From: a virus
Taxonomy: Duplodnaviria > Heunggongvirae > Uroviricota > Caudoviricetes
Reading direction: 5' to 3' (one strand)
DNA: 64,000 bases
IMG/VR virus record: IMGVR_UViG_3300002498_000057
The notes beneath the pieces are model-generated. The model worked only from the letters and a program-made list of their open reading frames with translations, made no database searches and was not told where the DNA came from. This document shows, piece by piece, positions 1-45,134 of the stretch. The position numbers and the translations under genes are program-made. Positions within the stretch are counted from its first letter, which is position 1. Each line of letters begins with the position of its first letter.

Positions 1-260
1 ACAGAATATATATAGTTTTGTAAAGGTATAGATCCTAAATATACATTTACTATTCAAAAATAGTAGTTGATTTATGGTTATAATAATGTATGGAACAAGT
101 TTAAAACTAGTCTTGAACCACCAACCGAAATTCTAGATAGAGACCGTTGGAGCCTGTAATGGAAGATACTTTTAGTAAATATGGTAAAATTTTTCAAATA
201 AAGGTAATATCTGCTATTTTACTAGATAAACACTTCTTTTTACAGATATATGAAATATTA

Positions 261-1550
261 AAATGACAATATTTTTAGTTATAGTCATTACAATGATTAT
301 ATAAATAGATAAAATAGTATTATCTATAGTATAATAATCTGCCTACACTATAGGTATTAGCAATAAAGCTTAAGACCATATAGAGTCAAGTTACTAAAAT
401 AGCTAATGTAGATGTATTTAGATAGGTTATAAAAAATACAAAATCTGAAGATTTACAATATATTAAAGATTAGACTACAGAATTTTGTAAAAATCAAAAC
501 TTATGATAGTCATTACAGATAATTGCATAGTTAGCAAAGACAGCAAAGCGGGAAAAATACGATCAAATAAGATTAATTATGCAAAATGCTTTACAAGCTG
601 GAACAGATACTAATATAGGTCATGATTGAAATAACTAGCTTTAGGAAAGATATAATGTGTCAGTTCGGTATTGTACTGATTTGCCCTGACCAATTTTAAC
701 TGATATTACTAATGGTGGGTTGGCTAAGGGTCAATTAGGCGTCATCGTCGGATGTGCTGCCGGCGGAAAATCATGAATGTTAGCAGCTATCGGTGCATGA
801 GCTATTAAACATGGTAAAAATGTAATACACTATACTATATAGTTAAGTAAGTATTAGGTTGGGATGAGATATGATTCGTTACTTACCAATGTTCCAAGTC
901 AAAAATTATTAATTAAAAAATAGGACAACAGATAGACACTTGAGTCTAAATAGCTTGGTAAATTACTAATACAATATTATCCACCAAGACGAGCTTCAGT
1001 TAATACGTTGGCGGCCCATATAAAGGTTTGTTAGCTTACTTGAGGCGTACCAGATTTAATTATAATGGATTATGGTGATAAATTAACTGCAACCGTAGTA
1101 AAAGGACAATAGGGTAGTTATTGGCAGGGAGCTGATATATATGATGCGTTAAAAGCGTTAGCAGGTGAAATAAATGTTCCAGTATGAACAGCATCACAAT
1201 CTAATAAATCAGGAAATTAGACATAGATTATATAGGGTCATCAAATAGCAGAATCATATGCAAAAGTAATGATAGCCGATTTTGTCATGAGTATATCAAG
1301 AAGAGCCTAGGACAGATAGTCTGGTATAGCTAGAATACATATTATAAAAAACAGAATGGGTCCTGACGGATTAACATATCAAGCAAAAACAAATATGGCG
1401 ACTGGGCATATGTAGATATTTGAAAATAATACAATATAGAGTTTAAATGTTAAAAAGGGGTCAGCAGTATCACAGAACCAAAGTATTCAAAGACAAATAA
1501 TTAAGAAAATGCAATAGCAAAAATTACAATAGCAGTATAGCTAGTAGTAA
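261..1550 (+). CDS. dnaB: DnaB-family replicative helicase (recoded; start unresolved, first in-frame ATG at 579)
   Basis: Frame open from TAA at 258 to TAA at 1548. Walker A GGKSWMLAAIG (W=TGA). TIELS aligns to DnaB SLEM with E=TAG. C-terminal ADFVMSISRR...IHIIKNRMGP matches the DnaB RecA fold. Many in-frame TAG and 7 TGA. Confidence 0.7.
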
Positions 1551-1619: not shown

Positions 1620-2555
1620 ATGAAAAATAATAGTAAAACAATACGACAATATATATAGAAATTAAATTAGGCTAGAGATACAACCCGTGTTTGAGATAAA
1701 CGATAGGGATGACGCGGCGATAAGCTTGGAACACCATACGAAAGAAAACATAATAAATATTTTAATGATTCAACTTTCCAAGATAATATGAAAACAATAT
1801 AGTGGTAGGATTTTATGGACTATTGTAAAAAAGATCCAATTTGAAATACGATTATATCTGGCGGAGAAAAATCTAATATATCTGGTAAGCTTCTTAAATT
1901 TTGTTTAAAAAAGCAAAAATAGTGAATGAAGGACAACACAACAATGTCACCAGACGGAGATGCCGTTTATCCAATTCAACCAGTACCAGAATCAGCGTAG
2001 TTGTAGTTTAAGTAGTTTATTTCTGATTATATACAATAGCATCAATCAATCAACACTCCATTATAGCAAGGATTAGATTATTGATTATCAGATCCAATAT
2101 TAAATAAACTTCATTATAAATACTGGGATAAAAATTTATAGTGAAGTACTAAGCAACAATAGTTTTAGAATCTAAAAGAATAGTATAATAATTTAACTAT
2201 TAAATACAAATAGTAGAAAAATAGTTATATACAAAATGAAATAAACGCATAGATTATTAGAAGTAAATATAGATTAAATGAGTTACTTAATATCTAGACT
2301 AAATTGACATCAATAAAGGATGAATTATATTTACAATTATAGAGTTTAGTATAGATATATAACGCTTCTCATAGTCAGACTATAGATAAACATGAAAGAG
2401 ATTTTATTTATAATTAGTTATTATTAGAAAAACCTAAACACTTTTCAGCTAAATATTATAAGACTCTACCATGAGACCCAGATTTAATTGATGATGTTGA
2501 CTAGTTTGATCCTAATAAAGACTATGATGGATTTGACGATTAGTAGGAAGAATAA
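1620..2555 (+). CDS. hypothetical protein with poly-acidic C-terminus (recoded)
   Basis: SD AGGAG + ATG; single frame to TAA with ~25 in-frame TAG and several TGA; no domain recognised. Confidence 0.4.
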
Positions 2556-3196: not shown

Positions 3197-5752
3197 ATGA
3201 TAAAAATGTAGTAGTTTTCAAAATATATATGATAGACAAATTATAAAGGACCAAACGATAATACAATATAGGACACTTGAAGAAGAATTGCAAAAACAGC
3301 AGCGTCGTTATAGAAAAATAAATAGTATTGATAGGAATAGTTTTATAATATATTATATAATTTTTAGGTTGTTCCCGGCGGTAGGATAAATGCAAACATT
3401 GGTATATAGTAGCGAAAAAATGCTAGTTTGTTTAATTGTTATGTTTATAACCCTCAAGATTTTGGAATAAAAGATATTGATAGTATATAGACAATTTTTA
3501 ATACTTTAAAGCAATCAGCAAAGATATTGGCTAGTTAGGGCGGGTTGGGTATAAATTTAAGTTGAATACGGCCCAACGGTTCATTTATACATGGTACGGG
3601 GGTAAGAACACCCGGCGTATTAAAATTTATGTAGTTGTGAGATAAGACGAGCTAGATAATAACATTAGGTAGTAATAAAAAAATTAGTGATAAATATAAG
3701 CATATATAGAAAAAAAAGATACGTAAAGGCGCGCTTATGGGTATCTTAGATATATGTCATGCAGACATTAAATAGTTTATAGTTGTAAAACAGAATGCAA
3801 ATGTTCTAACGAAATTTAATTTATCCATTATGATTTCTGATAAATTTATGCATGCCGTATAGAGTAATTAGGATTGATAGTTAAAATTTCCAGATACATA
3901 GTTTTAGAAATATAAAGAGTAGTGAGACGGTAACTTTCAAAAGTGATAGGATAATGGATATCCATTTATAGTTTTTTAGGTAGTAAAAGCAAAATAGTTA
4001 TGAGATATGATAATGATGTCAACATATAATAGAAATTAGCCAGGTGTATTATTTCTTGATACAATAAATAGATTAAACCCGGTAAGTTATTGCGAATACA
4101 TATGTTGTACAAATCCCTGTTCATAGATTCCGCAACCAAGTAATATTTGTAATTTATCAAATGTTAATTTAGTTAAATTTTTTAGTAAATAGACCGGATA
4201 GTTTTAGTTTGAAAAATTTGGAAAATACGTCGCAGTAATTGTTAGATTTTTAGATAATATATTAGACATCTCAACTATTCCAATACAATAGTATAGATAG
4301 CTTATTGAGGATAAGCGACGAATTGGAATTGGTGTCTTAGGTTAGGGCTCTCTATTATATATGATGAAAATGAGATTTGGGTCAAAATAGGCAATATAGT
4401 TTATAGATAAGTTGTTTAAATATAAATCATAGATATAGCATTTGACCTCAGCAAACCTTGGAAAATAGAAGGGGTCATTTAAGGCATTTGATAAATAGAA
4501 ATATTTTAACACATAGTATTGAAAAAGTTTGTAGATTTCCTAGAATATTAAACGTGAGATATAGAATATCGGTTATATGAGAAATTCAGTACATTCAACT
4601 TCAGCTCCAACAGGTAATACTGGAATATATGCCGGTGTAGTTTCTGGAGGAATATAGCCAGTAATAGAAAAAAGCGGTATAAGATGAGTTGTTGTTAATC
4701 AATAGTAGAAATTTAACCTATAGAAATATATCTTTCCAGATCCTCATAGGGGATAGTGATTTGAAACAAATTAGTTAAAATTTATCAAATGCGGGAATGA
4801 ATAGATATTATAGGGATATGTTGAAGATATAAAATATCGTATTGATAAAAACCGAGGAATGACAAAATAGGTTGATGTATAGGATTATGGCTGGGCGTAT
4901 GTTAAAAAGCATTATGATGATGCTTATAATAATAATTATATTGTATAGGCAAAATAGCTATCTGTATAGTAGCATATAAATATGTTAAAAGCTTCTGCTA
5001 AATATATAAATCAAAATCAATCAAAAACTGTAAATTTACCGTCGAGTTATACATTCGAAGATTTTAAAAATGTTTTCTACGATGCTTGAAAGAGTAATAT
5101 AAAGGGTATTACTACTTACCGTGATGGAACGATGGCAGCTGTTATATAGAAAAAGAAGTAGCAATAGTAGTATAAAACATAGTTATAGAGATTATTTGTA
5201 TAGTCTAACGGTAATGTTATTAAAGACTATGTTAAATTACCAAAATAGTTTGATTCAAAAACATATGTAGTTAAAGATGTAAATAATAAGAAATGGTACA
5301 TTACTTTAGGGTTTGCAGACAAAGCTTGTAAAAAACCATTTGCTATGTTTATAAGAACTAATGCACACATCGCAACAGATATAGCTAATACTACAATATA
5401 GGCAATATAGGATTTACTTAGACGCAAAGGAATTTCATAGCATTTAATTATATAGCAGCAATAGAAATATTTAAAACAAAATAATCTTGATAAAATTGCG
5501 AGAGCCATTGGAATGGCAATGAGACATAATGTTAAGATGATGGATATTGTAAGTGTATTAGAATAGTATAATGATGGATTATCTACAATACTATTTCATA
5601 TACGTAAACTATTAACTAAATTTATACCAGATGGAACTGTTGTTAATATTAATAATAATAAAGTAAAATGCATAGAGTGTGGACAATAGACAATAGTATA
5701 TTAGTCCGGGTGTAAAAATTGTAAAAGTTGTGGATGAACTGCATGTGGATAA
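3197..5752 (+). CDS. nrdJ: class II (adenosylcobalamin-type) ribonucleotide reductase NrdJ (recoded)
   Basis: Single 852-codon frame. Motifs PGGRINANIG, GGLGINLS.IRPNG...GTGVRTPGVLKFM and active-site NPCSEIP. C-terminal KGITTYRDGT and a Cys4 ribbon CIECG...CKNCKSCGWTAC with W=TGA. More than 60 in-frame TAG. Confidence 0.8.
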
Positions 5753-6045: not shown

Positions 6046-6660
6046 ATGGCAAAGAAAAAAAATGATTTAAAATAGATAAAGCAAGTAATATTATAGCAAT
6101 AGTAGTAGAGTACTTAGTAGCAAAAAGTATAGTAGTAGAAAGATAAATAGAATAATCCAGATAAAGGGTGCTTACTATTATAGCTATAGATTAAACATTG
6201 GGATAAATTATTAAAGGTATTTGTTCCAACTAAAGAAGATATATATAATGATAATACAGATGATTTTGGATATTCATAGACTCCACATATTACAATATTA
6301 TATGGATTCTTAGATAGATAGAATATTGATAAATAGAAATTACAATAGTATTTAATACCAACTGATAATATTAAACCTAAAATCACTGGTATGTCTTTAT
6401 TTGAATTATAGAAATATGATGTATTAAAATTTGATGTAGAATGTAAATAGTTAGTCAATATGAATAAGCAAATAGCTAAAAATTTCAAATATTCTAATGA
6501 CTATAGTAAATATATACCCCATATTACAATAGCATATTTATTACCTGGAACTGGAAAGAAATATGTTAAAAATATTAAATTATTTTATCCAAAAGTAAAA
6601 TAGTATATTTATAATTATAAAAATGTTGATACATAGTTAATTCCATTAAAACTAAAATAA
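6046..6660 (+). CDS. 2H phosphoesterase, LigT-like (2',3'-cyclic phosphodiesterase / 2'-5' RNA ligase family) with acidic N-terminal tail
   Basis: Two H-x-T-x motifs (TPHITILYG and IPHITIAYL) in one frame; N-terminal run of TAG (Glu) codons; TAA stop. Confidence 0.65.
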
Positions 6661-6936
6661 TTGTGATAACTTTAAATACAGTGTATATAATTAAATATAA
6701 AAATGACTAAAAAAGAGTATCAATTAAAAAAAAATGAAGCTATTATATTAAAAGATAAAACTATGTAGGTATTAATATCTTAGATGTACATTGATACCCT
6801 CGAATAGCGTATTAAATAGCTTGAGAATGATGGGTTAAGATTAGTTCATTTGCATTATCCAACAGTATTAGAGGGAACAATAACCACATCAGCATCAATT
6901 TGAGAATATGACGAATAAAATAAATTAATATAAATA

Positions 6937-7071: not shown

Positions 7072-8979
<1,908 letters not shown>

Positions 8980-10397: not shown

Positions 10398-11468
10398 ATG
10401 GAAAGGTCATATTATTAGATACTGGGTGTTGATAAAACAGCTAATGTAGATTAGGTTAAAAAAGCTTATCGTAAACTAGCAATGTAGCACCATCCTGATA
10501 AGAACAATAATAATAAATAGTCATAGGATAAATTTAAATAGTTAAGTGAAGCATATGAAGTATTATCAGATCAACAAAAACGGCAACAATATGATATGTT
10601 TGGAAAAGGTGGAGTTAATACATCAAATATAAATGACATGTTTGGTCATGGATTTGGTTTTGAGTCTATATTTGATTCTATATTTAACCATAGAAATCCA
10701 TTTAATAGGCAACAACATCAACAACAACGAGTTGAAAAAAGTTAGGATCTTGTAATAGAAGTGTAGATAAATTTAACTGATACAGTATAGAATATTTAGA
10801 TTATTAAATAGATATAGTATAAAGTTAAGTGTAAAAAATGCAATGGAACAAAGTCATAGGATGGTAAAACTCATAATTGTACTACCTGTAATGGAACTGG
10901 TATAATTACAAGAGTTACTAATATGGGTTCAATGGTAATGCAACAGCAAATGACTTGTAATAGTTGCAATGGAGTTGGAAATGTTATATAGACCTTGTGC
11001 AGTAGTTGTAATGGAACTGGATTTTAGTTATAGAAAAAAAATATTAATATAACTATTCCAAGGGGTATAGAGTCTAATGTAAAACTTCAACTTAAAGACA
11101 TTGGAAATATTAATAAAGATAGGCCTGGTGATATAATTGTTATAATAAATGTAATTAATAACACAATATTTACTAGAGATAATAATAATTTAATATATAT
11201 TTACCCTATACAATATTATGATTTAATTCTTGGAACTAAGTTTATTTTAAAAACTATATATGATAAATAGCTTTAGATAACTATACCATCAGGGATTAAA
11301 GAGTCAATAAGTATACCTAATTAGGGCATATATAGTATATTTGTAAACAATAGTAATACTAGGGGTATATTACAAATAAATTTATAGTGTAAAATACCAT
11401 CAAAATAGTAGATTGAACAAAATTAGATTACATTATTATAGAACATAAAGGAGATCCGAAATGGATAA
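10398..11468 (+). CDS. dnaJ: co-chaperone DnaJ (J domain + Gly/Phe region + CxxCxGxG zinc-finger repeats), recoded
   Basis: SYY.ILGV..., [14 protein letters not shown] and [20 protein letters not shown]; four CxxCxG repeats ([31 protein letters not shown]); TAG at conserved Glu of DYYEILGV. Confidence 0.8.
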
Positions 11469-14059: not shown

Positions 14060-14131
14060 GGGTGACTCATCCAATGGTTAGGATCCTGGATTTCAACCCC
14101 AGTCATATGCGTTCGAGTCGTATGTCACCTG
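14060..14131 (+). tRNA. tRNA-Trp(UCA), opal-decoding
   Basis: Acceptor GGGTGAC/GTCACCT, anticodon loop TTTCAAC (UCA), T-loop TTCGAGT, discriminator G, CCA encoded. Confidence 0.85.
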
Positions 14132-14618
14132 CCATATTTTTTTAAATTAAAATAATAGAGGGTATTTAATGGAGCACAGATAGCATATTGTATTTGATGA
14201 TATGTATAATAATTATAAAATAATTCAATATGCATATTATTAGCCAACGAATATTAATAGATATGGTTTACATTACTTAGATATATAGAAAACAATAATT
14301 ATTAATAATTATACTAAGTTTGTATTTAAGATCCATTTAAATAATATATCTTTTACAAAATACAATAAAGATAAATTTATGTTATCTATAGTAAAAGTTG
14401 TTGATATTTTTGCAAATCATACTATAGAATTTCCAAGTATACTTATAAAAATATAGAATCCAAAAGAAGTTTAGAAGTATGTTGAATTTGATTGTAAAAA
14501 TCTTAAAATTGATAAATTAAAAGGTTTATTTGATAATATAGATATAGTGATTAATAAGTTTTTATAGCTATATAAATAGCCGTATATACTAAGTTAAAAA
14601 TGATAAAGAGGGGGTGTT

Positions 14619-15627: not shown

Positions 15628-16986
15628 TTGAATACTATAAAACTTCCTTATATTATTGATACAAAAGAAGATATAGATTATATCATATGTCTTAGAAAGC
15701 AACAATCTAATGTCATTAGATTTTCTTATAATAGATTTAAAGATAAATTATCTTAGAAATAGATAAGATTGTTAATTAAAGATTTAAATAATATAAATAA
15801 CTTAGATAGTTGGTTTATACAATCTGCTATTAAGAAAGCATAGTATCTATATAAATCTAATCCAGATAAGAAAGTAATCTTCGGTGGTAAATCTAATTAT
15901 CTCAAGAGATTACAAAGTAAAATTACAAAAGAATAGTATAAGTAGAAAAGAATTTAGCCATTGTATGTTGTGGGATAGTCTCCAAAGAATGGTAATAGAA
16001 AGTTTAACTTAGATATTGACAATAACTGTCTAGTATTTAAACCGTATGTAAGAAGAAAAATTAAATTACAATTACCAAAATTACATAAAAATATTAAAAA
16101 ACAATTATTGTTTTTACAACAACAAGCAAAAGATAAACTTCTTGCTTATCAAATAGCTATTGATGCTGAGTTTATTTACATTTCTTTTGAATATGAAAAA
16201 CATACTATTGAATTAAATAAGAGTATTTACATGGGAATCGATTTGAATCCCCAATTTATTGGGTATTCAATAATCAAGGGTAGTAAAGTAATATATTCTA
16301 AAACTTATGATATTGGATAGATAATTACTAGAGTAAAATAGACTAAAGAATAGTCTTCATCCAAAACTAATAAATATTTAAATAATAAATTTAACCATGA
16401 AACTATTTAGATTTCTAAAGACATAATAAACAATTGTTTAAAATACAAAGTATCTAATATATTTATGTAGTCCTTAGATTTTACTAAATCATTTAAGTTT
16501 AAATACAAAGGTTTAAATAGATTGTGTCAAAACCTTTGAAAAAGAAATAAGTTTACAAGCAATATTCAAAAAAGATGCAATTCCTATGGCGTCAAGTTAT
16601 CATTTATCAATGGTGCATATAGCTCTACTATAGGAAATATAAAGTATAATTTATTCGATCCATGCAATTCAGCTATTTAGATAGCAAGACGTGGATACGA
16701 GTGTTATACTAAAAGACAAAAGAAATTTTATCCAAATTTAGTAGTTAAAAAAGAATTTAAAGATCAATGGAAGAAATATTTAAATTCTAAGACTATTGAG
16801 TTAGATAGCGTTTCAAATGAAGATTTATTTAAAAATACCTGGAAAGATCTTCATAATTACCTAAAAAATTCTAAAGTGAAATATAGAGTTTCTTTAAGTG
16901 AGTGTGACTTATTTAAAGTTTTTAGATTAAAGAATAAAAGAAGTATGGTAAAATTATATAGTTTTACTTAGTCTTTTATACTTTAA
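15628..16986 (+). CDS. tnpB: IS200/IS605-family TnpB (RuvC-like, zinc finger), recoded; probable TTG start
   Basis: RuvC-I MGIDLN, RuvC-II IFMESLD and RuvC-III FDPCNSAIEIARRGY; TGA inside NLWKRNK; many TAG; left-end hairpin at 15500-15540. Confidence 0.7.
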
Positions 16987-17099: not shown

Positions 17100-17136
17100 A
17101 AAAATAATTGTGATAAATCTAGAGACTTAGATATAA
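17100..17136 (+). promoter_or_regulatory. conserved promoter motif copy 4 (inside TnpB right-end/omega-RNA region)
   Basis: TTGTGA 17107-17112, 18-nt spacer, TATAAT 17131-17136. Confidence 0.5.
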
Positions 17137-17277
17137 TAAAAAATATAAGTAAGAGCCAATAAGGTTATAGATGTGAATTTAAAAAGAGTTATTTTTATAG
17201 TAAAAAGCCCAAAACTTTGTATTGATATGCTAATCCAAGTAGACTTGGTTAATATGTAATATTTCTAACTCTTTTTA

Positions 17278-17314
17278 AAAATAATTGTGATAAATCTAGA
17301 AAGCTAGATATAAT
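17278..17314 (+). promoter_or_regulatory. conserved promoter motif copy 5, driving tRNA(CUA)
   Basis: TTGTGA 17285-17290, 18-nt spacer, TATAAT 17309-17314; tRNA 5' end 12 nt downstream. Confidence 0.6.
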
Positions 17315-17325
17315 AAAAAATATAT

Positions 17326-17397
17326 GGAGTTATCGTTTAATGGCTAGGACCGCAGATTCTAAACCTGCAGATCGGGGTTCGATCCCCCGTAACTCTA
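17326..17397 (+). tRNA. amber-decoding tRNA(CUA) with Glu/Gln-type body (probable tRNA-Glu(CUA))
   Basis: Acceptor GGAGTTA/TAACTCT, D-stem GTTT/GGAC (U11-A24, U13-G22), anticodon loop TTCTAAA (CUA), 4-nt variable loop AGAT with A46, T-loop TTCGATC, CCA encoded. Confidence 0.85.
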
Positions 17398-17605
17398 CCA
17401 GATTCATAACCTATTTTTATGTGGGTTGGGTAGCTAAGGAGTATTAAAGAGGTAATATTACTTTAATAAAAACCACTTAAGGGATAATTAATATTTTTAG
17501 TGTAGCAGGTCAATTTCTAAAAATATTGAGTTATTCAAAATCTCCTAAATGAATCTTTTATTTACCTCAGGTATCACAATGGTTAGTGAGTCTGAGCTTA
17601 TTTAT

Positions 17606-17677
17606 GGGCAGGTCATATAGTGGTTAGTATGCGACTCTTATACGGTTGTCACGGTGGTTCAATTCCACCTCTGCCTA
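17606..17677 (+). tRNA. tRNA-Ile(UAU)
   Basis: Acceptor GGGCAGG/TCTGCCT, anticodon stem CGACT/GGTTG with GU pairs, loop CTTATAC, T-loop TTCAATT, CCA encoded. Confidence 0.7.
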
Positions 17678-17867
17678 CCAATTTTAAAAATATTTTCATA
17701 AACATGAACCTTTAATTTATTTATATATAATAAGGAGTTCAAATTTATGGAAGAATTAATATGCAAATACTGTAATAAGTTGTTAAAAACAAAAGATTAT
17801 ATGCACAACATGAAATAAGATGTACATGCAATTCAAATAAAATTGATTGTATGAATCATTATATTAA

Positions 17868-17941
17868 GCCCAAGTAACTCAGTTGGTAGTAGTGATTGTG
17901 TTACATGCAATAAGTCATAGGTTCGAATCCTATTTTGGGCA
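17868..17941 (+). tRNA. tRNA-Val(UAC)-like with poorly paired D-stem
   Basis: Acceptor GCCCAAG/TTTGGGC, anticodon stem ATTGT/GCAAT, loop GTTACAT, T-arm ATAGG-TTCGAAT-CCTAT, CCA encoded; D-stem ACTC/GTAG does not pair. Confidence 0.5.
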
Positions 17942-17949
17942 CCAGTATT

Positions 17950-18112
17950 TAAAAATAATAGTTACTACGTATTAGGGACAACTAATCCTAATCAAATTAG
18001 ATCCCTATATCAAGAGTATTTAGCTAATATTTACTTGATACTACTGTCGTCAGAGACGTTAAGACTGATTAATCGGGTGTAGTAACTATTATTTTTTAAT
18101 AAGTGTATAGAG
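17950..18112 (+). ncRNA. long perfect hairpin RNA candidate sharing the AATAATAG motif of the Y-RNA-like units
   Basis: AAAAATAATAGTTACTAC ... GTAGTAACTATTATTTTTT 18-bp inverted repeat enclosing ~110 nt with three internal hairpins. Confidence 0.3.
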
Positions 18113-18127
18113 TGATAAACATGTTGA

Positions 18128-18484
18128 GGGGATGAAATGGATTCGACATAGTGAATAGGATAGAGAAACGAGTAGAGAATGATTGTGATACTCTCAAAAC
18201 TCAATTAAAGTTAAAATAGTTAACGACAACTTACTACAAGCTGCTTAATTGCAGACTATCATAACTGAGGTTCTCTGATTTGTAGATTATGATAGTAAGA
18301 CCATAATCAGACTTATCCAATAAGATAGTCTTAGTAATTGGATATAGTATACAAGGCATTACATAATTTAGGTTTGCACAATTGTCCTTCTTATGTGATT
18401 ATTAAACAATTATGCTATACTCGTAAGTGATTTCTTGAAAGTAAGCATTATGGACCCGAGTATCGAAACTCGGCATCTCCACCA
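18128..18484 (+). ncRNA. ssrA: tmRNA (SsrA)
   Basis: 5' GGGGATGAAATGGATTCGAC and tRNA-like 3' end GGACCCGAG-TATCGAAA-CTCGG-CATCTCC-A-CCA; internal tag frame (V)NDNLLQAA-TAA. Confidence 0.8.
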
Positions 18485-18519
18485 TTTTCAATAAATTGAA
18501 TTATAGGTTTCTTTATTTA

Positions 18520-18610
18520 CCTGTTTTAAATGAAGTGGTGAATAACTGTGCTTAATTGCACTAATTACCCAAGTTTTTGCTATTTTCACTTTGAGTAAAG
18601 TAGTACTTTT
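18520..18610 (+). repeat. ~95-nt repeat family R1, copy a (candidate small RNA preceding tRNAs)
   Basis: About 80% identical to 18906-19000; contains GTGCTTAATTGCAC and CTTTGAGTAAAG hairpins. Confidence 0.35.
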
Positions 18611-18611
18611 A

Positions 18612-18689
18612 GGGCTATATCTTGGGATACTATTTAGTAAACCTACAACTGGAACTAAATGGCTTAGAGTTCGATTCTCTAATAGTCCT
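18612..18689 (+). tRNA. tRNA-like element with canonical acceptor and T-arm, anticodon unresolved
   Basis: GGGCTAT/ATAGTCC acceptor, TAGAG-TTCGATT-CTCTA T-arm, CCA encoded; no clean D or anticodon stem found. Confidence 0.3.
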
Positions 18690-18708
18690 CCAGAATTTAA
18701 TAGTTAAT

Positions 18709-18779
18709 AGACTTTTAGTGAAATGGTATCACGAAGGAATTTGGATCCTTAGTTATAGGTTCGAATCCTATATGGTCTG
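18709..18779 (+). tRNA. tRNA-Gln(UUG)
   Basis: D-stem GTGA/TCAC, anticodon stem AAGGA/TCCTT, loop ATTTGGA, 4-nt variable loop, discriminator G, CCA encoded. Confidence 0.8.
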
Positions 18780-18822
18780 CCAATATATAAAACCAATAAG
18801 TATATAGGGTGTAAATTTTTAT

Positions 18823-18894
18823 AGAGCATTCGTTTATCGGAAAAGATACTCGGCTGTCGCCCGAGAGAGAGGGGTTCAACTCCCCTATGTTCTG
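18823..18894 (+). tRNA. tRNA-Asp(GUC)
   Basis: Acceptor AGAGCAT/ATGTTCT, anticodon stem CTCGG/CCGAG, loop CTGTCGC, T-arm AGGGG-TTCAACT-CCCCT, discriminator G, no CCA. Confidence 0.75.
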
Positions 18895-18905
18895 AAGTTA
18901 AAAAC

Positions 18906-19000
18906 AGTTCTTATTTACTGTCTTAAATAAGTGGTGGATAACTGGGCTTAATTGCACCAATTTCTCAGGTCTTTGGTATTTTCGCTTTGAGTAAAGTACC
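18906..19000 (+). repeat. repeat family R1, copy b
   Basis: Paralog of 18520-18610. Confidence 0.35.
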
Positions 19001-19008
19001 ATTTTAAT

Positions 19009-19081
19009 GTCACAGTAACTCGGGTCGGAAGAGTGTTCGTTTGAAGGGCGAAAGGCAGGATATCGAAATTCCTCAGTGGCA
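19009..19081 (+). tRNA. tRNA-Phe(GAA)
   Basis: D-stem ACTC/GAGT, anticodon stem TTCGT/GCGAA, loop TTGAAGG, discriminator A, CCA encoded; T-loop ATCGAAA atypical. Confidence 0.7.
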
Positions 19082-19104
19082 CCATACTTTGTATGTTTTA
19101 AACA

Positions 19105-19197
19105 CTATAATTAATCTTTGGTGGAGAGTTGATCACTCTTAGATATTTCGTTAATATCATGGAAATGTAGTAGTTCGAATCTACATTATAGTATTTA
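19105..19197 (+). repeat. ~93-nt repeat family R2, copy a (tRNA-like/structured RNA candidate)
   Basis: About 93% identical to 23628-23722; hairpins AGAGT-TGATC-ACTCT and ATGTAG-TAGTTCGAAT-CTACAT (T-arm-like). Confidence 0.35.
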
Positions 19198-19205
19198 AGT
19201 TTTAT

Positions 19206-19279
19206 ATTCCTATAGCTCAGTTGAATAGAGCAAATGCCTTCTAAGCATTAGGTCGTTGGTTTGAGTCCAACTAGGAATG
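19206..19279 (+). tRNA. tRNA-Arg(UCU)
   Basis: Acceptor ATTCCTA/TAGGAAT, D-arm GCTC-AGTTGAATA-GAGC, anticodon loop CTTCTAA, CCA encoded. Confidence 0.85.
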
Positions 19280-19313
19280 CCAAAATTGAATAAATAGTGT
19301 GTAAAATTTTTTA

Positions 19314-19387
19314 GTACACTTAGCCAAGTGGTCAACGGCGGATGGCTGCAACCCATCTATTCACAGGTTCAAATCCTGTAGTGTACT
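19314..19387 (+). tRNA. tRNA-Cys(GCA), class I
   Basis: Acceptor GTACACT/AGTGTAC, anticodon stem GATGG/CCATC, loop CTGCAAC, discriminator U, CCA encoded. Confidence 0.8.
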
Positions 19388-19408
19388 CCAATTATTTTCA
19401 TATTTTTA

Positions 19409-20962: not shown

Positions 20963-22330
20963 ATGTCGAAAGTTAATGTAAAGGTTGCTTATCCAAATCC
21001 TAAAACACATGGAGATGGTATTGCGTCAAAACTTACTAAGTTAGAAGAACTTCGTAGAAGTGTATTATCTAATATGCTTTGGGAAAATGAATTTTATGAA
21101 GACGGCGAAAGTATTGCAACTAGAATAACCAATTTAGCGAATACTGTTGATCCTAACAAGGTAGCTGATTTGGCTATTGAAGCAAGAGAACAAATGAAGT
21201 TAAGACATGTACCATTATTGTTATGTCGTATTCTTGCAAAAAGAGGTTATAAGGTAGCAAATACTTTAGCTAGAGTTATTCAAAGACCAGATGAACTTAC
21301 TGAATTTTTAGCTATTTATTGGAAAAATGGCAAAGAACCTTTATCAGCTCAAGTTAAGAAAGGACTAGCGTTAGCATTTACAAAATTTGATGAATATCAA
21401 TTAGCTAAATATAATAGAGATGAAAATATTAAATTAAAAGATGTATTATTTTTATCCCATGCAAAACCCCTTACTGATGACCAAGCAAATGTCTGGAAAA
21501 GATTAATTGATGGTACCATAGAAACTCCAGACACCTGGGAAGTAGCATTATCAACTGGTAAGGATAAGAAAGAAACTTTTGAAAGACTTATTACTTCAAA
21601 AAAATTAGGCGCATTAGCGTTAATACGTAACTTAAGAAAGATGGAAGAATCAAAAGTTGACAATAATATTATAAAACAAGCATTACTAGATATGAAAGTT
21701 GATAGAGTATTACCATTTAGATTCATTGCGGCAGCAAAACATGCTCCAAGATTTGAGCAGGATCTTGAACAAGCAATGTTTAAGTGTCTTAGTAATGGTA
21801 CTAAGTTACCTGGTAAAACTATTTTAATAATAGATATTTCTGGTAGTATGCATGGTCAATTATCATCTAAATCTGAAATGAGTAGATATGATGCTGCTAA
21901 TTCATTAGCTATTCTAGTAAGGGAAATGTGTGAAAATCCCGTAATATATGCTACAGCTGGAAATGACGGTAGAAGAATTCATGCAACAGCTTTAGTTCCA
22001 AACAGACGTGGATTTGCATTGCCAGACGCTATTATGAACATGAATAGTACTCTTGGTGGTGGTGGAATATTCTTAAAGCAAGTAATGGATTATGTATATG
22101 ATAAAGAGCATGATGCAGATAGAATTATAATTATTACAGATGAACAAGATTGTGATAATAGTAACGTAAATGCACCTGCAAATGCTAATGCCTTTGGGAA
22201 ACAAAATTATATTATAAATATTGCTTCATATAATAGAGGTATAGCATATAATAAAAAATGGATCCATATTAGTGGATGGTCAGAAGCGGTATTAAATTAT
22301 ATAGCACAATATGAGTTAATGGGTAATTAA
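20963..22330 (+). CDS. rsr: Ro60 ortholog (TROVE domain + C-terminal vWA/MIDAS), Rsr-like
   Basis: N-terminal LTKLEELRRSVLSNMLWENEFYEDG (TROVE); C-terminal ILIIDISGSMHG MIDAS motif; SD AAGGAG; no TAG/TGA. Confidence 0.8.
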   Translation: MSKVNVKVAYPNPKTHGDGIASKLTKLEELRRSVLSNMLWENEFYEDGESIATRITNLANTVDPNKVADLAIEAREQMKLRHVPLLLCRILAKRGYKVANTLARVIQRPDELTEFLAIYWKNGKEPLSAQVKKGLALAFTKFDEYQLAKYNRDENIKLKDVLFLSHAKPLTDDQANVWKRLIDGTIETPDTWEVALSTGKDKKETFERLITSKKLGALALIRNLRKMEESKVDNNIIKQALLDMKVDRVLPFRFIAAAKHAPRFEQDLEQAMFKCLSNGTKLPGKTILIIDISGSMHGQLSSKSEMSRYDAANSLAILVREMCENPVIYATAGNDGRRIHATALVPNRRGFALPDAIMNMNSTLGGGGIFLKQVMDYVYDKEHDADRIIIITDEQDCDNSNVNAPANANAFGKQNYIINIASYNRGIAYNKKWIHISGWSEAVLNYIAQYELMGN

Positions 22331-25191: not shown

Positions 25192-25277
25192 GTACCTGTG
25201 ACAGAATGGTTAATGTGGCAGTCTGCAAAACTGTTGAGGTGAAAGCTTCATTGTAGGTTCAAATCCTATCAGGTACT
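25192..25277 (+). tRNA. class-II (long variable arm) tRNA carrying Cys anticodon GCA
   Basis: Acceptor GTACCTG/CAGGTAC, anticodon stem GCAGT/ACTGT, loop CTGCAAA, variable arm TGAGG-TGAAAG-CTTCA, T-arm GTAGG-TTCAAAT-CCTAT, discriminator U, CCA encoded. Confidence 0.6.
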
Positions 25278-25283
25278 CCAAAT

Positions 25284-25919: not shown

Positions 25920-25993
25920 AAGGGTGTCGGTTAATGGTTGACCAACAGTCTCCAAAACTGTATTTAATGCAGGTTCGACTCCTGTTCTGGGTA
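25920..25993 (+). tRNA. tRNA-Trp(CCA)-like, probable pseudogene/chimera (acceptor stem cannot pair)
   Basis: D-arm GGTT-AATGGTT-GACC, anticodon stem ACAGT/ACTGT, loop CTCCAAA. 3' 30 nt GCAGGTTCGACTCCTGTTCTGGGTACCA identical to the 3' end of the 23436 tRNA, but the 5' strand AAGGGTG is not complementary. Confidence 0.45.
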
Positions 25994-27802: not shown

Positions 27803-28405
27803 ATGAAAGCAAAAGAAGTATTACAAATATTAAGAATTACAAGACCGACATTAACAAAATATGTTAGATAGGGTTGAATTAAAGTTTAGTAGTTGCCAAG
27901 TAAAAGATACATATATAATGATGAATCTGTTTATAAATTAATGAATAACAATATAGATAGAAAAACTGTAATATACGGAAGAGTTTCAACTAAATCACAG
28001 AAAAAAGATTTATAGAATCAAATGTAGTTATTAAAGCAATATTGCTTTAATAATGGATACCAGATAAATGCGGTATATTCTGATATTGCATCTGGTATTG
28101 ACTTTTCAAATAGAGTATAGTTTTTTAATTTATTAGATTAGATTATTAGTGGTAAGATAAAAAAAGTTATAATTACATATAAAGATAGGTTAAGTAGAAT
28201 TGGATTTTCATTTTTTGAAAAATTTTTTAAAAAATATGATTGTAAGATATAGGTAATTTCTTAGTTAAATAATCATAAATTATAGAGTTAGTAGATATTT
28301 GAATAGATAATAAGTTTAATTCATTGTTTTTCAATGAAAATATATAGTAAAAGAAAATCTAATAATACTATTATAATAAGTACTAATAGTTAGGATATAA
28401 AATAA
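27803..28405 (+). CDS. tnpA: IS607-type serine recombinase TnpA (recoded)
   Basis: N-terminal MerR-like HTH MKAKEVLQILRITRPTLTKYVR; catalytic YGRVSTKSQKKDL; VIITYKDRLSRIGFSFFEKF; SD AAGGAG. Confidence 0.75.
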
Positions 28406-28459
28406 CTCTTGATTAAAACATAGATTATTCAATGTAAATTTAATTTTTAGATAGATAAT

Positions 28460-29623
28460 ATGTTATTTATATCTAAGAATTTATACAATTATGCTAATTA
28501 TATAATTAGGCAGTAGTTTATAAATAATAGAAAATGAATAAGATATAATTAGTTATACCGTCTAGTTAAATAGAACTAGAATTATAAAATATTACCAGCT
28601 CAGACTAGCCAACAAGTTTTAAAGTTATTAGATAAAAATTGAAAATCATTTTTTACTGCTATTAAATTATGAAGTAAAAATAAATCAAGCTTTACTGGTA
28701 AACCAAGTCTACCAAAATATAAGAAAAAAGATGGAAAAAATATTTTAATATATCCTTTTCAAAATATTTCTATAGACAAAGAAACAAATTAGATTAAAAT
28801 ACCAAAAACAAAGTATAAAATTAAAATATCTAATAGGTTGTTATCTTAGACTATTAAATTTAAATAGTTAAGAATAATACCAACAAATGTTGGATTTAAA
28901 TGTTAGATAATATATAATGATAATCAAGATTTTCAAAAACAAGAAGATAATAATAGATATTGTAGTATAGATTTAGGATTAAGTAACTTTTCTACATTAG
29001 TAAATAATTTCGGAACATTACCACCAATAATTATAAATGGAAAAACAATTAAATCCTTTAATCGATATTATAATAAAAAGTTATCTAAATTACAGTCTAA
29101 ACTTTCATAGGAAAATAAATTTGTGTCAAAAAGAACACAGAGGTTAACTCAAAAAAGAGGTAATAAAATTAAAGATTCACTTCATAAAATTTCAAAATAC
29201 ATTCAAAATTATTGTGTAGATTTAGATGTATCAAGAGTAATAATGGGATACAATAAACAATGAAAAACAGATATTAATCTTGGTAAAAAGATAAATCAAA
29301 AATTTGTACAAGTTCCATATAATACTTTTTTAAATATGTTAAAGTATAAATTATATGATATTGGAATAATTTTAGAAATTACAGAAGAATCTTATACAAG
29401 TAAATGTTCTTTCTTAGATAAAGAAAAAATATGTAAACATACGTAGTATCAAGGAAGTAGAATTAAACGCGGTATATTTAAAACAAAATAGAACAAATAT
29501 ATAAATGCTGATGTTAATGGTAGTTATAACATCATAAGAAAAGTAATCGGTGATGATATTTATAATAATATCCAATCGATATAGGGATTGGTGTTAAACC
29601 CAGTTAGACTAAATATAGTTTAA
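28460..29623 (+). CDS. tnpB: IS607-type TnpB (recoded)
   Basis: LPAQTSQQVLKLLDKNWKSFF (W=TGA), SIDLGLSNFSTL (RuvC-I), IMGYNKQWKTDINLGKKINQKFVQVPY (W=TGA), EESYTSKCSF, INADVNGSYNIIRK. Confidence 0.75.
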
Positions 29624-36425: not shown

Positions 36426-37040
36426 ATGGCAGACACATATCTAATTCAAAAACTAAGAAAGTAGACTGGTTATCCACTTGGGCAGTGTAAATAGGCATTA
36501 GAATATACTAATTATGTTTATGATACCGCTATAGAGTATTTAAAGTCTTTAACCTTAAATAAGAAATATGGACAACCAATACCAATAACTGAAACTTCTA
36601 CTGCTAATGGTATAATTTATTCATATATACACCACAATGAGAAAATTGGTGTTATGTTATAGATGAGATGTGACTCTGATTTTACCGCTAAAACAGAATA
36701 GTTTAAACAGTTATGTGAAGACATTGCATTACATATTGTCGTGACTAATCCAAAATATTTTAAACCAAGTTAGTATATAACTATACATGGTGAATAGCTA
36801 GATAAAGAACATGAGATTCTTTATCAAAAATTAAAGTTACAAAATAAACCAGAAAATATAATTCATACAATTATCAATAACATGCAATAGAAAAAAGTAA
36901 ATGATTTATGTTTAATGACACAAAAGTTCTTTAAAGATTAGAAAGTAACAATATCTGATATTTGTAGAGATTTGTCAAATAAGACAAATGAAAACATTTA
37001 TGTAGAAAAGTTTATAAGGTTTTAGTTGGGTAAATAGTAA
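36426..37040 (+). CDS. tsf: elongation factor Ts-like protein (recoded)
   Basis: N-terminal LIQKLRK.TGYPLGQCK.ALE (EF-Ts UBA-like motif [20 protein letters not shown]); IGVML.MRCDSDFTAK aligns to ILEVNCQTDFVAK; LHIVVTNPKYFKP aligns to MHVAASKPEFI. Confidence 0.5.
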
Positions 37041-42855: not shown

Positions 42856-43881
42856 ATGAAAATATTATACAAGATTAAAGCTGGTTCATATTTATATGGA
42901 CTAACCACACCTACCTCAGATATAGATTATGTTGGGGTATACTTAGAAGATACATTTAGTGAACATATGGATATTTTTAATTCTAAAGATGAAATTGATC
43001 TTTCAGTAATATCTAAATTAAATAATGGTAAAAATAGTGAAGATGCAATAGATGAAAAATACTATAGTCTTAAAAAATTTTTAAAGTTGTGTAGTGATTG
43101 TAACCCAAATATTATAGAGCTCTTATATGCGCCGGCCGATTGTATTGAATATGTAGATACTATATTTAAATCTCAAATTCTTGACCATCCAGAATTATTT
43201 ATAAATATAAAATTAGTTGATAGATTTATTGGATATGCAAAAAGTCAAGAGCAAAAAAGTTATACTAAGTCTGAAAACTATATAATACTAGATAAATTAA
43301 AACAGGGTATATTAAAAGTATTAAAGCATTCTAGTTATTGGGTTTTAAATGAATTGTCCCCCGCTAGAGATTTATTTAGCCGACAATCATTTATGGCACC
43401 GTTTCCAGAATTTGATAACATTACTATTACTCCAATTACAATTAATCATACTGCTACTAATATTGAGACAATATATGAAATAGGTGATATGAAATTTTCA
43501 TCTGGATTACATCTTAAAAATGTTATTTTACAAATTGAAGATAGGTTTAAACGAGCTTCACATAGAGTAGATGGAATATTAATTAATAAATACGAACCAA
43601 AGTTTTTATCACATACAGTACGGTTGTTAGATGAAGGCTGTCAATTATTAACTAAAAAACGTATAGATTTTCCATTTACTGAACAATCACTAGCAGACAT
43701 TATGAATATTAAATTGGGGTTAACGGCAGTTCAAGATATTCCAAATATTGTCAATAAATATAAAGATACTTTAACAGAATTAGAGAAACTTGATAACAAT
43801 ATTCCAGACAAACCAGATTATATTTGTATAAATAAAGCATATTTAACTTTAATAAGAGGTATTTACAATGAAAATATTTAA
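42856..43881 (+). CDS. Pol-beta superfamily nucleotidyltransferase
   Basis: GSYLYGLTTPTSDIDYVGVY matches G[SG]-x9-13-DxD of minimal NTases and CD-NTases; 341 aa. Confidence 0.55.
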   Translation: MKILYKIKAGSYLYGLTTPTSDIDYVGVYLEDTFSEHMDIFNSKDEIDLSVISKLNNGKNSEDAIDEKYYSLKKFLKLCSDCNPNIIELLYAPADCIEYVDTIFKSQILDHPELFINIKLVDRFIGYAKSQEQKSYTKSENYIILDKLKQGILKVLKHSSYWVLNELSPARDLFSRQSFMAPFPEFDNITITPITINHTATNIETIYEIGDMKFSSGLHLKNVILQIEDRFKRASHRVDGILINKYEPKFLSHTVRLLDEGCQLLTKKRIDFPFTEQSLADIMNIKLGLTAVQDIPNIVNKYKDTLTELEKLDNNIPDKPDYICINKAYLTLIRGIYNENI

Positions 43882-44129
43882 GATGGTTGGTAAAATAATA
43901 TTGATTGTATGGCTAATTATAACAGCAATTTGTCTTATACCGGGTGCAATTTGTTTTGGTATTTTGATTTTACTTGAATCTATATTTAAGGTAAATACGA
44001 AAATAATGAAACATCGTAACGTCAGTTAAATAATTGTAATAAACCATAAATAGACAAGTATAATTTAAGTAAAGGAGATATAAAATGAAGTTTATTAAAT
44101 ACAATGAAATTGAAAACTCTACAAACAAA

Positions 44130-45134
44130 ATGATTTATGAATTTAAACAATCAACATTGTATAATCCAACTGATATTTGAGTTGTAACCATCAAAATTCA
44201 TGGAAGCAATTTCCAAATTATAAGAGCCGACGATGGACAATTGGTGCCAGCTAAAAGAACTAATACTCTGGAAATGACATCTTCTTTCTTTAACTTTCAA
44301 TCAATATTTGATAGATATGATTATAACAAATTAATGAATAATATCTTAGAATTTGCAAAAATACACTATCCAGATTTTTTGGGTGGAATAAGTATTCATG
44401 GAGAGCTTTGTGGTGGTCATTATCCTGGAGCAGAAGTAGTACCAAATGCAAAAAAGGTTCAAAAAGAAGTAGCATACTCAAATAATACAGAATTAATAGT
44501 ATTTGATATACGACTAACCTCGACTGATAATGATGATTACTATATATTTATTCCGCATTATCAAATAATTAAGCTTTGCAACGATTGTAATATCCCAGTA
44601 GTTCCTATTATATTTGAAGGTACTTTAGATGAATGTTTAAAGTGGTCTAGCGAACATAATGCTGACCCCTGTGAAATATGGAAAATATTTGGTATGGATC
44701 ATGAAGTAGAAAATAACATTCGTGAGGGTCATGTTATTAAACCGGCTATTAAGACAATATTTAAGGGCCAACATCGTATGATATTTAAAGATAAGAATGA
44801 TAAATTTAAAGAAAATAAAGGTAGCAAAGAAAAAAATGCAGTACCAAAAATTACTTACAGCGATAATATGATTTATATCTTAGACAATATTGATACTATG
44901 ATTTGCATTAATAGGTTTAATTCTGTTACTTCAAAATTTGGTGAATATAGTATTAAAGATTTTAGACTATTAATGTTATTTATGATTGAAGATATTTATG
45001 ATGAACTTAATAGATCTATAGATTTAAAAGAATTATTTGATACTTTAACTAATGTTGAAAAGAAAGAATTGAATGATATTTTGAATAAAAAGATTGCTAG
45101 TTTTATGGGCGCAAATAAAAAAGAATTATTTTAA
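44130..45134 (+). CDS. Rnl2-family RNA ligase (start uncertain; one in-frame TGA=Trp at 44178)
   Basis: DIWVVTIKIHGSNFQ aligns to T4 Rnl2 GEWVAREKIHGTNFS (motif I KxHG, W from TGA); motif IV EGHVIKP; motif V KIFKDKNDKF. Confidence 0.7.

Follow-up and report, generated by a model that had tools for sequence, protein, structure and literature searches.

Phages that reassign stop codons by means of suppressor tRNAs are already known. The code-15 phages (Lak, crAss-like, and Garnet/Amethyst/Topaz) are AT-rich, carry in-frame TAG in a subset of their genes while the rest keep the standard code, encode their own tRNA(CUA), and have been proposed to switch codes in the course of infection; the code-4 phages (Jade, Sapphire, and Agate) read TGA as Trp by a phage tRNA(UCA), and the tryptophanyl-tRNA synthetase (TrpRS) found in two Jade genomes is a precedent for a phage synthetase proposed to charge a suppressor. 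The assignments made in this literature are TAG to Gln, TGA to Trp, and Gly only where the host uses code 25, explicitly so in Borges et al.; Al-Shayeb et al. left a TAG-to-X assignment open and noted phage glutamyl-tRNA synthetase (GluRS) genes without linking the two, and signals of “TAA/TAG to glutamate” in assemblies of archaea were put down to contamination by a 2026 preprint. Here we describe a stretch of 64,000 nt from a Caudoviricetes phage (IMG/VR record IMGVR_UViG_3300002498_000057; hereafter the window) that encodes a tRNA with anticodon CUA, tRNA(CUA), and lies next to a phage GluRS gene. The best explanation of the data as a whole, which we hold with high confidence, is that this phage uses two codes and that its tRNA(CUA) reads TAG as Glu, most likely after charging by the phage GluRS.

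This arrangement differs from that of the code-15 phages in that the inserted residue would be Glu rather than Gln, TGA too has become a sense codon in those genes, the tRNA is linked to a dedicated family of GluRS, and the recoded set includes replication and chaperone genes, not only late structural and lysis genes. It differs from that of the code-4 phages, where a single stop is reassigned, in that TGA→Trp is joined by TAG→Glu and only TAA is left as a stop; the inspected part of the contig shows no TrpRS. In the searchable literature, which leaves subscription journals mostly outside, we found neither a phage with TAG→Glu, nor a GluRS paired with tRNA(CUA), nor a single phage in which TAG and TGA are both reassigned. 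TAG→Glu with a linked GluRS is therefore new relative to that literature. Glu would be the third amino acid for phage stop-codon recoding, after Gln and Trp (and Gly only in code-25 hosts), contradicting the generalization of Borges et al. that phages differ from their hosts only by TAG→Gln and TGA→Trp.

The window comes from a jumbo-phage contig of 256,585 bp (ENA ERZ27315036 k141_100919), of which we inspected ~77 of 256 kb, namely the window with flanks of ~13 kb. Its G+C content ranges from 24 to 36%, and all convincing genes are on the + strand. Reading TAG as sense raises + strand coverage by open reading frames (ORFs) from 18.7 to 38.5 kb, with a gain of only ~3 kb on the - strand, and reading through TGA as well raises + strand coverage up to 50.3 kb; this lengthening, together with in-frame stops at conserved sense positions, is what distinguishes a stop-codon-recoded phage. 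The genes form two classes: in one TAG never occurs, and in the other, about half of the total, it is common and makes up as much as 6-10% of codons. All ORFs examined terminate at TAA when TGA, too, is taken as sense. The share of Glu codons drops from 6.3% to 2.8% in TAG-rich genes, with Gln codons at 3.4 versus 3.0%, and across 57 ORFs the TAG content correlates negatively with Glu codons (Spearman rho = -0.51, p = 6e-5) and not with Gln codons (rho = -0.04). TGG likewise falls, from 1.1% to 0.4%.

Alignments to homologous proteins carry most of the weight in assigning an amino acid to TAG. In an alignment of DnaK with 110 homologues from bacteria, the conserved part of the protein holds 13 TAGs, of which 10 fall in columns with at least 80% Glu, and seven of these columns have Glu in 109-110 of the 110 (motifs NxEG, FEV, KIELS, LGIET, and QGER); Gln-dominated TAG columns occur only in the low-complexity Q-rich tail. 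The large subunit of ribonucleotide reductase (RNR), aligned with 90 homologues, has TAG in columns where one residue reaches at least 60%, and this residue is Glu in 18, Asp in 3, and Lys, Leu, and Thr in one each, never Gln. One RNR TAG stands at the Glu of the NPCSE motif, which is Glu in 85 of the 90 homologues and which we take to be the catalytic residue, so that Gln there would presumably inactivate the enzyme. Pooling the two proteins, 27 of 41 TAGs at conserved columns correspond to Glu against a 5.1% baseline (p = 2e-25), compared with the two that agree with NCBI translation table 15 (TAG = Gln), and a Codetta-like log-odds score gives +116 bits for Glu and -93 for Gln. TGA at conserved columns matches Trp in 12 of 12 cases (log-odds +74 for Trp, -51 for Tyr). 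On these alignments TAG almost certainly specifies Glu in this phage, and TGA is read as Trp in the recoded genes; since the latter are the same genes in which TAG = Glu, TAA is their only stop codon. The TAGs of DnaJ agree with the Glu assignment. It is this codon evidence, rather than the body of the tRNA, that carries the Glu claim, because scoring of the body is ambiguous, as set out below.

The consequences for public annotation can be seen directly. The public DnaK (P0001) is identical to our TAG-read translation except that all 23 TAGs are given as Q, and the public RNR gene call on the same contig (L008) is in three fragments, broken at TGA. In two relatives of this DnaK (P0002 and P0003, 73-74% identity) Q stands where Glu is universally conserved, as in INQPTAAAL, NPDQAVA, and LQGQRP, and both have presumably been mistranslated in the same way. 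Because gene calling with table 15 puts Gln at every TAG, invariant and catalytic Glu included, and breaks genes at TGA, systematic errors follow for the annotation, structure prediction, and phylogeny of these phages.

The window's tRNA(CUA) has the sequence GGAGUUA-UC-GUUU-AAUGGCUA-GGAC-C-GCAGA-UUCUAAA-CCUGC-AGAU-CGGGG-UUCGAUC-CCCCG-UAACUCU-A-CCA and scores 51.5 bits at 17326-17397 against the Rfam tRNA model (RF00005; gathering threshold 29), with stems of 7, 4, 5, and 5 bp and the T-loop UUCGAUC. Direct reading bears out the structure assigned to it by a first-pass annotation made from the sequence alone: U8 and C9, a D stem GUUU/GGAC with U11-A24 and U13·G22, a 4-nt variable loop AGAU with A46 and no residue 47, and a T stem CGGGG/CCCCG. 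To these we add G1·U72, A73, the encoded CCA, an A31·C39 mismatch, and an 8-nt D-loop. The anticodon loop is that of an amber suppressor, the canonical 7-nt UUCUAAA with U33, C34 U35 A36, the purine A37, and A38. Seven related tRNA(CUA) genes can be folded into one cloverleaf, in which compensatory changes support 16 of the 22 pairs, and all seven keep the U11-A24 pair. The thermodynamic fold of tRNA(CUA) is no better than that of shuffled sequences (z = -0.7) and that of tRNA(UCA) is likewise unremarkable; such values are usual for tRNAs, and fold z-scores were not used as evidence. We consider it highly likely that tRNA(CUA) acts as the TAG decoder and carries Glu.

ARAGORN labels this gene tRNA-Pyl, from the anticodon alone. 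Genuine tRNA-Pyl has a 3-nt variable loop, a short D-loop, and an elongated anticodon stem, with pyl genes nearby. We rejected the label, as the cloverleaf is standard, with its 8-nt D-loop and 4-nt variable loop; no Pyl-pathway protein was found among ~20 larger ORFs scanned against Pfam or PHROGs. The tRNA(UCA) of the window is the probable Trp-inserting opal decoder; a blastn search of it against phages was uninformative. Both suppressor tRNAs have the G1·U72 wobble and the A31·C39 mismatch at the bottom of the anticodon stem, and the mismatch recurs in the tRNA(CUA) of another locus (L140 12521-12595), so that it looks like a kept feature. The window holds 28 tRNA genes by ARAGORN, to which Rfam adds a tmRNA, fewer than the ~35 tRNAs counted in the first-pass annotation; its statement that tRNA-Glu(UUC) is missing holds, as no tRNA for UUC or CUC was found in the window or its flanks, and neither was a tRNA-Trp(CCA).

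The phage GluRS gene begins just beyond the window. Its product scores 348.3 bits against the NCBIfam model gltX_bact (TIGR00464; cutoff 289.95) and has the HIGH (MHIGN) and KMSKS (KLSKR) motifs, with a match that covers only profile positions 2-372 of 470, and HMMER alignments stop before the C-terminal domain. Pfam PF19269 (Anticodon_2), present in all cellular matches, was found neither in this protein nor in ~30 family members, database proteins with 42-58% identity over its full length and the same divergent C-terminus; cellular GluRS proteins match only the catalytic two-thirds. Yet an AlphaFold2 model (predicted local distance difference test score, pLDDT, 91) aligns over its full length with bacterial GluRS in Foldseek (template modeling score, TM, 0.72-0.75; ~490 aligned columns), compared with TM 0.53 for GluQRS and 0.47 for glutaminyl-tRNA synthetase (GlnRS). 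Because the whole fold is matched without the Pfam domain, the helical C-terminal domain is kept but strongly diverged. The GluRS2 of Helicobacter pylori is comparable as a duplicated bacterial GluRS with altered specificity, being specific for tRNA-Gln; it feeds an amidotransferase that yields Gln, whereas the phage enzyme would put Glu on a stop-codon reader, where it would stay Glu.

We examined the neighborhoods of seven proteins of this GluRS family. The GluRS gene is free of TAG and TGA in all seven, and the four neighborhoods checked for recoding (L139-L142) are TAG-recoded, with Glu codons, not Gln codons, depleted in TAG-rich ORFs. In five of the seven a tRNA(CUA) lies 1-6.4 kb downstream of the GluRS gene on the same strand, as against none with a suppressor tRNA within 10 kb among 72 ordinary viral GluRS loci from IMG/VR (Fisher p = 9e-7); for these 72 the ORF-extension flag is noisy at high G+C, and only the tRNA result was used. 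All six GluRS-linked tRNA(CUA), that of the window included, have G1·U72. We are inclined, somewhat beyond an even chance, to regard the phage GluRS as the dedicated partner of tRNA(CUA).

The alternative that survives best, though still an unlikely one, keeps TAG = Glu and has the host GluRS charge tRNA(CUA), the phage enzyme merely boosting the supply of Glu-tRNA or serving some other tRNA. Huge phages often carry aminoacyl-tRNA synthetase genes without any recoding; the 72 viral loci have no suppressor tRNA nearby; GluRS and tRNA(CUA) are 47 kb apart in the contig of the window; and the structural GluRS determinants kept in tRNA(CUA), the augmented D-helix, could be read by a host enzyme. 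The anticodon, however, is itself a strong GluRS determinant (PMC9976931), and CUA lacks U34 and C36. The part of the phage GluRS that has diverged is exactly the anticodon-binding domain, the family is tightly linked to tRNA(CUA) and always TAG/TGA-free inside recoded genomes, and no tRNA-Glu(UUC) was found among the 28 phage tRNAs. We therefore continue to prefer charging by the phage GluRS.

Could the tRNA instead carry Gln? The set of E. coli tRNA-Glu identity elements, as given by Sekine et al. 1996 and summarized in PMC9976931, includes U11-A24, U13·G22··A46, the absence of residue 47, U34, U35, C36, and A37. In tRNA(CUA) the U11-A24 pair is present, as are U13·G22, A46, and the gap at 47 (the tertiary triple itself is predicted), and so are U35 and A37. 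Where that source lists U34, C36, U2-A71, and G1-C72 for E. coli tRNA-Glu, tRNA(CUA) has C34, A36, G2-C71, and G1·U72. C34 occurs naturally in tRNA-Glu(CUC), in 40 of 99 tRNA-Glu among the matches listed from the genome scan described below, so that position 36 is the only foreign anticodon position relative to tRNA-Glu(CUC). The two acceptor pairs replace weak E. coli determinants, and in the 101 bacterial tRNA-Glu among the matches listed the pairs seen most often are G·U at 1-72 (54) and G-C at 2-71 (38). The U1-A72 pair and G73 are positions used by GlnRS and the amidotransferase (PMC9976931); tRNA(CUA) lacks both, along with G3-C70, U38, G36, and a 7-nt D-loop, having instead G1·U72, A73, A3-U70, A38, A36, and an 8-nt D-loop, and shares only G2-C71, G10, U35, and A37 with the tRNA-Gln set.

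To place the body of the tRNA among cellular tRNAs, we scanned 185,579 species genomes for its D-arm/T-arm signature with the anticodon left free. This gave at least 135 matches, which among the matches listed comprise 99 tRNA-Glu, 34 tRNA-Gln, and 2 tRNA-Arg; the body is thus recognizably of the Glu/Gln type, and the D arm alone does not decide between the two, since it also occurs in 34 tRNA-Gln. Three positions discriminate better among the matches listed. Nearly all tRNA-Glu have G·U or G-C at 1-72 (98 of 101), where tRNA-Gln mostly have U-A (42 of 45); at position 73 the usual residue is A in the former (69 of 101) and G in the latter (38 of 45); and the D-loop measures 8-9 nt in 98 of the 101 tRNA-Glu and 7 nt in 38 of the 45 tRNA-Gln. 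With G·U, A, and 8 nt, tRNA(CUA) is on the Glu side at all three, and its best full-length blastn matches among annotated phage tRNAs are all tRNA-Glu (73.5-74% identity). We rely on these discriminators and on the codon evidence because whole-body scoring could not separate Glu from Gln. The Glu-type identity proposed in the first-pass annotation is therefore sustained, most strongly by the codons and by the TAG-free GluRS gene just outside the window and also by the discriminators, and left ambiguous by the body as a whole; as for the isotype check that it suggested, ARAGORN's label follows the anticodon, and our naive-Bayes score, considered next, gives no clear assignment to Gln.

Several observations weigh against the interpretation preferred here. 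A naive-Bayes whole-body score that classed 130 of 130 reference tRNAs correctly as Glu or Gln gives tRNA(CUA) only +2.2 bits for Glu; its nearest-reference identity is 0.71 for Glu and 0.69 for Gln; and pairs 3-70, 4-69, and 49-65 and U48 lean to Gln. The E. coli GluRS determinants U34, C36, and U2-A71 are absent, and one GluRS-linked tRNA(CUA), that of L142, has a different D arm. Conserved TAG columns other than Glu are 4 Asp, 3 Lys, 2 Ser, 2 Gln, and one each Leu, Gly, and Thr. Promoter copies at 6661 and 13142 precede ORFs that contain TAG, and the Rnl2 gene behind the copy at 44034 holds one TGA. Finally, a further CUA tRNA or a tRNA-Glu(UUC) could be encoded in the ~180 kb of the contig that lie outside the inspected part.

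An ordinary code-15 suppressor as in Lak and crAss-like phages, with Gln placed on tRNA(CUA) by a host GlnRS or by a non-discriminating GluRS plus GatCAB, is a reading that we judge very improbable. It agrees with the public gene call for this contig (TAG = Q), with the 34 tRNA-Gln that share the Glu-like D arm, with a whole-body score near zero, and with reports in the literature that E. coli attaches Gln to amber suppressor tRNAs. Against it stand the two Gln columns, both in the Q-rich tail of DnaK, where 27 are Glu; the TAGs at invariant Glu of DnaK (LGIET and QGER) and of RNR; Gln codon usage, which shows no drop in TAG-rich genes; and a tRNA with none of U1-A72, G73, G3-C70, and U38 and with a longer D-loop. 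It is scarcely credible that tRNA(CUA) is decaying or unexpressed, with TAG read by a suppressor elsewhere or by near-cognate readthrough: the uninspected ~180 kb, the A31·C39 mismatch, and the fold z-score would allow it, but the tRNA scores well against Rfam, its T and D arms are intact, its CCA is encoded, its U33-CUA-A37-A38 loop is optimal, and a perfect copy of the promoter stands 11 nt before it, the mismatch is shared with tRNA(UCA) and the L140 tRNA, and leaky readthrough cannot serve TAG at 6% of codons.

The promoter upstream of tRNA(CUA), AAAATAATTGTGATAA-N15-TATAAT, is where the first-pass annotation had placed it, with 11 nt between the -10 box and the 5' end of the tRNA. Its 16-mer has 11 exact copies on the + strand of the window and, at up to 3 mismatches, 35 matches against 12.7 expected, a number that none of 100 shuffles attained; the full motif TTGTGATAA-N15/16-TATAAT has 18 copies, all on the + strand. 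The further claim that this copy is dedicated to tRNA(CUA) stands insofar as every other RNA gene is at least 244 nt from any promoter copy. It is weakened in that no terminator-like site was found between 17400 and 18849, so that the promoter may head the whole downstream cluster of tRNA genes and tmRNA. A near-identical twin of the promoter lies upstream. The ~130 nt behind the twin hold no recognized gene or ORF, and 17140-17277 has no Rfam match at E<=1 and a fold no better than that of shuffled sequences; this region may represent a small RNA, a leader, or what is left of a duplication. A search of Rfam at a permissive threshold found no ribozyme next to tRNA(CUA).

Where a promoter copy is followed by an ORF with Shine-Dalgarno sequence and ATG, that ORF has zero TAG in 14 of 14 cases, which suggests that the promoter marks genes readable by a naive host ribosome. 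The exceptions given above (two promoter-led ORFs with TAG, and Rnl2 with one TGA) mean that the split between standard-code and recoded genes is not absolute.

We envisage the following sequence of events. The phage would run two codes, with a standard-code gene set, lacking TAG and almost lacking TGA, behind a sigma-70-like promoter and Shine-Dalgarno sequences, and a second set (DnaK, DnaJ, RNR, helicase, elongation factor EF-Ts, and many others) with TAG and TGA as sense and TAA as sole stop. Host RNA polymerase would transcribe the standard-code genes, GluRS and tRNA(CUA) first, presumably early in infection; because tRNA(CUA) has the same promoter as the standard-code genes, it could be made by unmodified host machinery, and its maturation would require removal of only a short 5' leader, the CCA being already encoded. 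The phage GluRS would then glutamylate tRNA(CUA), charging with Glu being expected because the GluRS determinants U11-A24, U13·G22··A46, no residue 47, G1, U35, and A37 are kept. Lacking U1-A72, G73, and a 7-nt D-loop, the tRNA should escape GlnRS and the Glu-tRNA(Gln) amidotransferase, so that Glu stays Glu. Genes with TAG, among them those for replication, chaperones, and EF-Ts, would become translatable afterwards, with TGA read in parallel by tRNA(UCA) and release factors RF1 and RF2 presumably outcompeted.

Put more generally, and with only modest preference over other accounts, we propose that an AT-rich jumbo-phage clade carries a self-contained GluRS·tRNA(CUA) pair, with the anticodon domain of the synthetase remodeled for CUA and with a tRNA that retains the core Glu determinants, an invariant G1·U72, and anti-determinants to the Gln pathway, and that this pair installs TAG = Glu (and here, in addition, TGA = Trp with TAA as sole stop), and that databases mistranslate these genomes as code 15. 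A metagenome scan for a Glu-type D arm with a CUA anticodon gave six further tRNAs. In one contig (L011, 22% G+C) the tRNA(CUA) adjoins a flap endonuclease gene with TAG at the Glu of G-x-EADD and is next to a gene for a RecA-like protein with TAG at GPESSGKT and AEIEG; a 13.6-kb relative (L009) has TAG at conserved Glu positions of DnaK. An unrelated AT-rich contig (L016) has, beside its Glu-type tRNA(CUA), a tRNA-like gene at 1090-1162 with anticodon UUA, the same D arm, and G33, which may be an ochre-reading relative or a pseudogene.

If this proposal is right, the phage GluRS with its remodeled anticodon domain, linked to tRNA(CUA), would be a candidate natural orthogonal pair for genetic-code engineering and a test case for synthetase-tRNA co-evolution during codon capture. 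The standard-code GluRS gene, a tRNA behind an early-type promoter, and recoded replication and chaperone genes together make a testable model of a translational switch. UAG is read as Glu in the nuclear code of peritrich ciliates, NCBI table 30. The phyllopharyngean ciliates have been assigned “UAG to Glu” as well (PMC11687900). These ciliate codes resemble the phage system in that glutamate is inserted by a tRNA-Glu-derived suppressor; they are eukaryotic and nuclear, involve changes in eRF1, and apply genome-wide, whereas here a bacterial virus recodes part of its genes in a host with the standard code. Dual reassignment with TAA as sole stop would also be a natural counterpart of the E. 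coli strain engineered to have one stop codon. That strain reportedly keeps UAA and has UAG and UGA freed. Single-stop termination is common to both (Nature 2025, PMC11903333), that case being synthetic and this one apparently natural, with the same end state for the recoded gene set.

A megablast search with 14-20 kb of window sequence as query gave no match among 50,697 phage records, and the searched IMG/VR collection had no match to either an exact or a loose tRNA pattern, from which we take this lineage to be absent from that collection. Seven IMG/VR relatives of DnaK are only distantly similar to it (46-55% identity), and no tRNA genes lie near them. Among cellular proteins, those closest to the phage DnaK come from Cloacimonadota (63% identity), as do the cellular GluRS matches of longest coverage (39-41% identity over 96% of the query), which hints at a host in that phylum. 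Coordinates for the features discussed here and below are given in Table 1.

Table 1. Coordinates of the promoters, RNA genes, and protein genes discussed, numbered from the first nucleotide of the window
Feature	Position	Strand	Details
DnaB-like replicative helicase	159-1550	+	31 TAG, 9 TGA; phrog_19, 6.5e-69; example of a TGA-containing recoded gene
Further example of a TGA-containing recoded gene	1620-2555		
Ribonucleotide reductase large subunit	3197-5752	+	851 codons; 74 in-frame TAG, 14 in-frame TGA; example of a TGA-containing recoded gene
DnaK/Hsp70	7072-8979	+	23 in-frame TAG; main test case
DnaJ	10398-11468	+	24 in-frame TAG; J-domain TAGs align with conserved Glu
tRNA(UCA)	14060-14134	+	ARAGORN; Rfam 43 bits; G1·U72, G73, A31·C39 mismatch
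251-codon ORF	16231-16986	+	No Pfam match; directly upstream of the promoter pair
Twin promoter copy	17101-17137	+	Near-identical; 177 nt upstream of the tRNA(CUA) promoter
Promoter of tRNA(CUA)	17278-17314	+	AAAATAATTGTGATAA at 17278-17293, 15 nt, TATAAT at 17309-17314
tRNA(CUA)	17326-17400	+	ARAGORN; anticodon CTA; CCA encoded
Downstream RNA cluster	17606-19390	+	tRNA-Ile(UAU), tRNA-Val, tmRNA, tRNA-Gln(UUG), tRNA-Asp, tRNA-Arg, tRNA-Cys; ARAGORN, Rfam
tmRNA	18128-18484	+	94.7 bits
tRNA(GCA) (Cys)	25192-25280	+	89 nt
Partial tRNA-like match	25929-25985	+	33 bits
Serine-recombinase-like and TnpB-like ORFs	27803-29623	+	Identified by eye
EF-Ts, short	36426-37040	+	Pfam EF_TS 2e-27; 10 in-frame TAG
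RNA repair/quality-control genes	20963-22330, 42856-43881, 44085-45134, 49795-51018, 60821-61891, 6046-6660		Nearly all TAG-free
GluRS	64238-65584 (extrapolated)		448 codons; L137 13418-14764; ~238 nt past the right end of the window; TAG/TGA-free, ends in TAA

Besides tRNAs and GluRS, the phage encodes a short EF-Ts and a tmRNA as further translation components. Genes for RNA repair and quality control are dense in the window, with a TROVE/Ro-like protein, RlaP, an Rnl2-like ligase, RtcB, a T4 Rnl1-like ligase, and a 2H/LigT-like phosphoesterase; this set suggests that the phage protects its tRNAs from anticodon nucleases of the host. Within the tRNA region lie a serine-recombinase-like ORF and one that resembles TnpB, and directly before the promoter pair stands a 251-codon ORF without a Pfam match. 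As TAG and TGA occur in all three, the mobile elements appear to use the phage code. The tRNA(GCA) gene is long enough to imply a long variable arm, unusual for tRNA-Cys, and the partial tRNA-like match lies near it.

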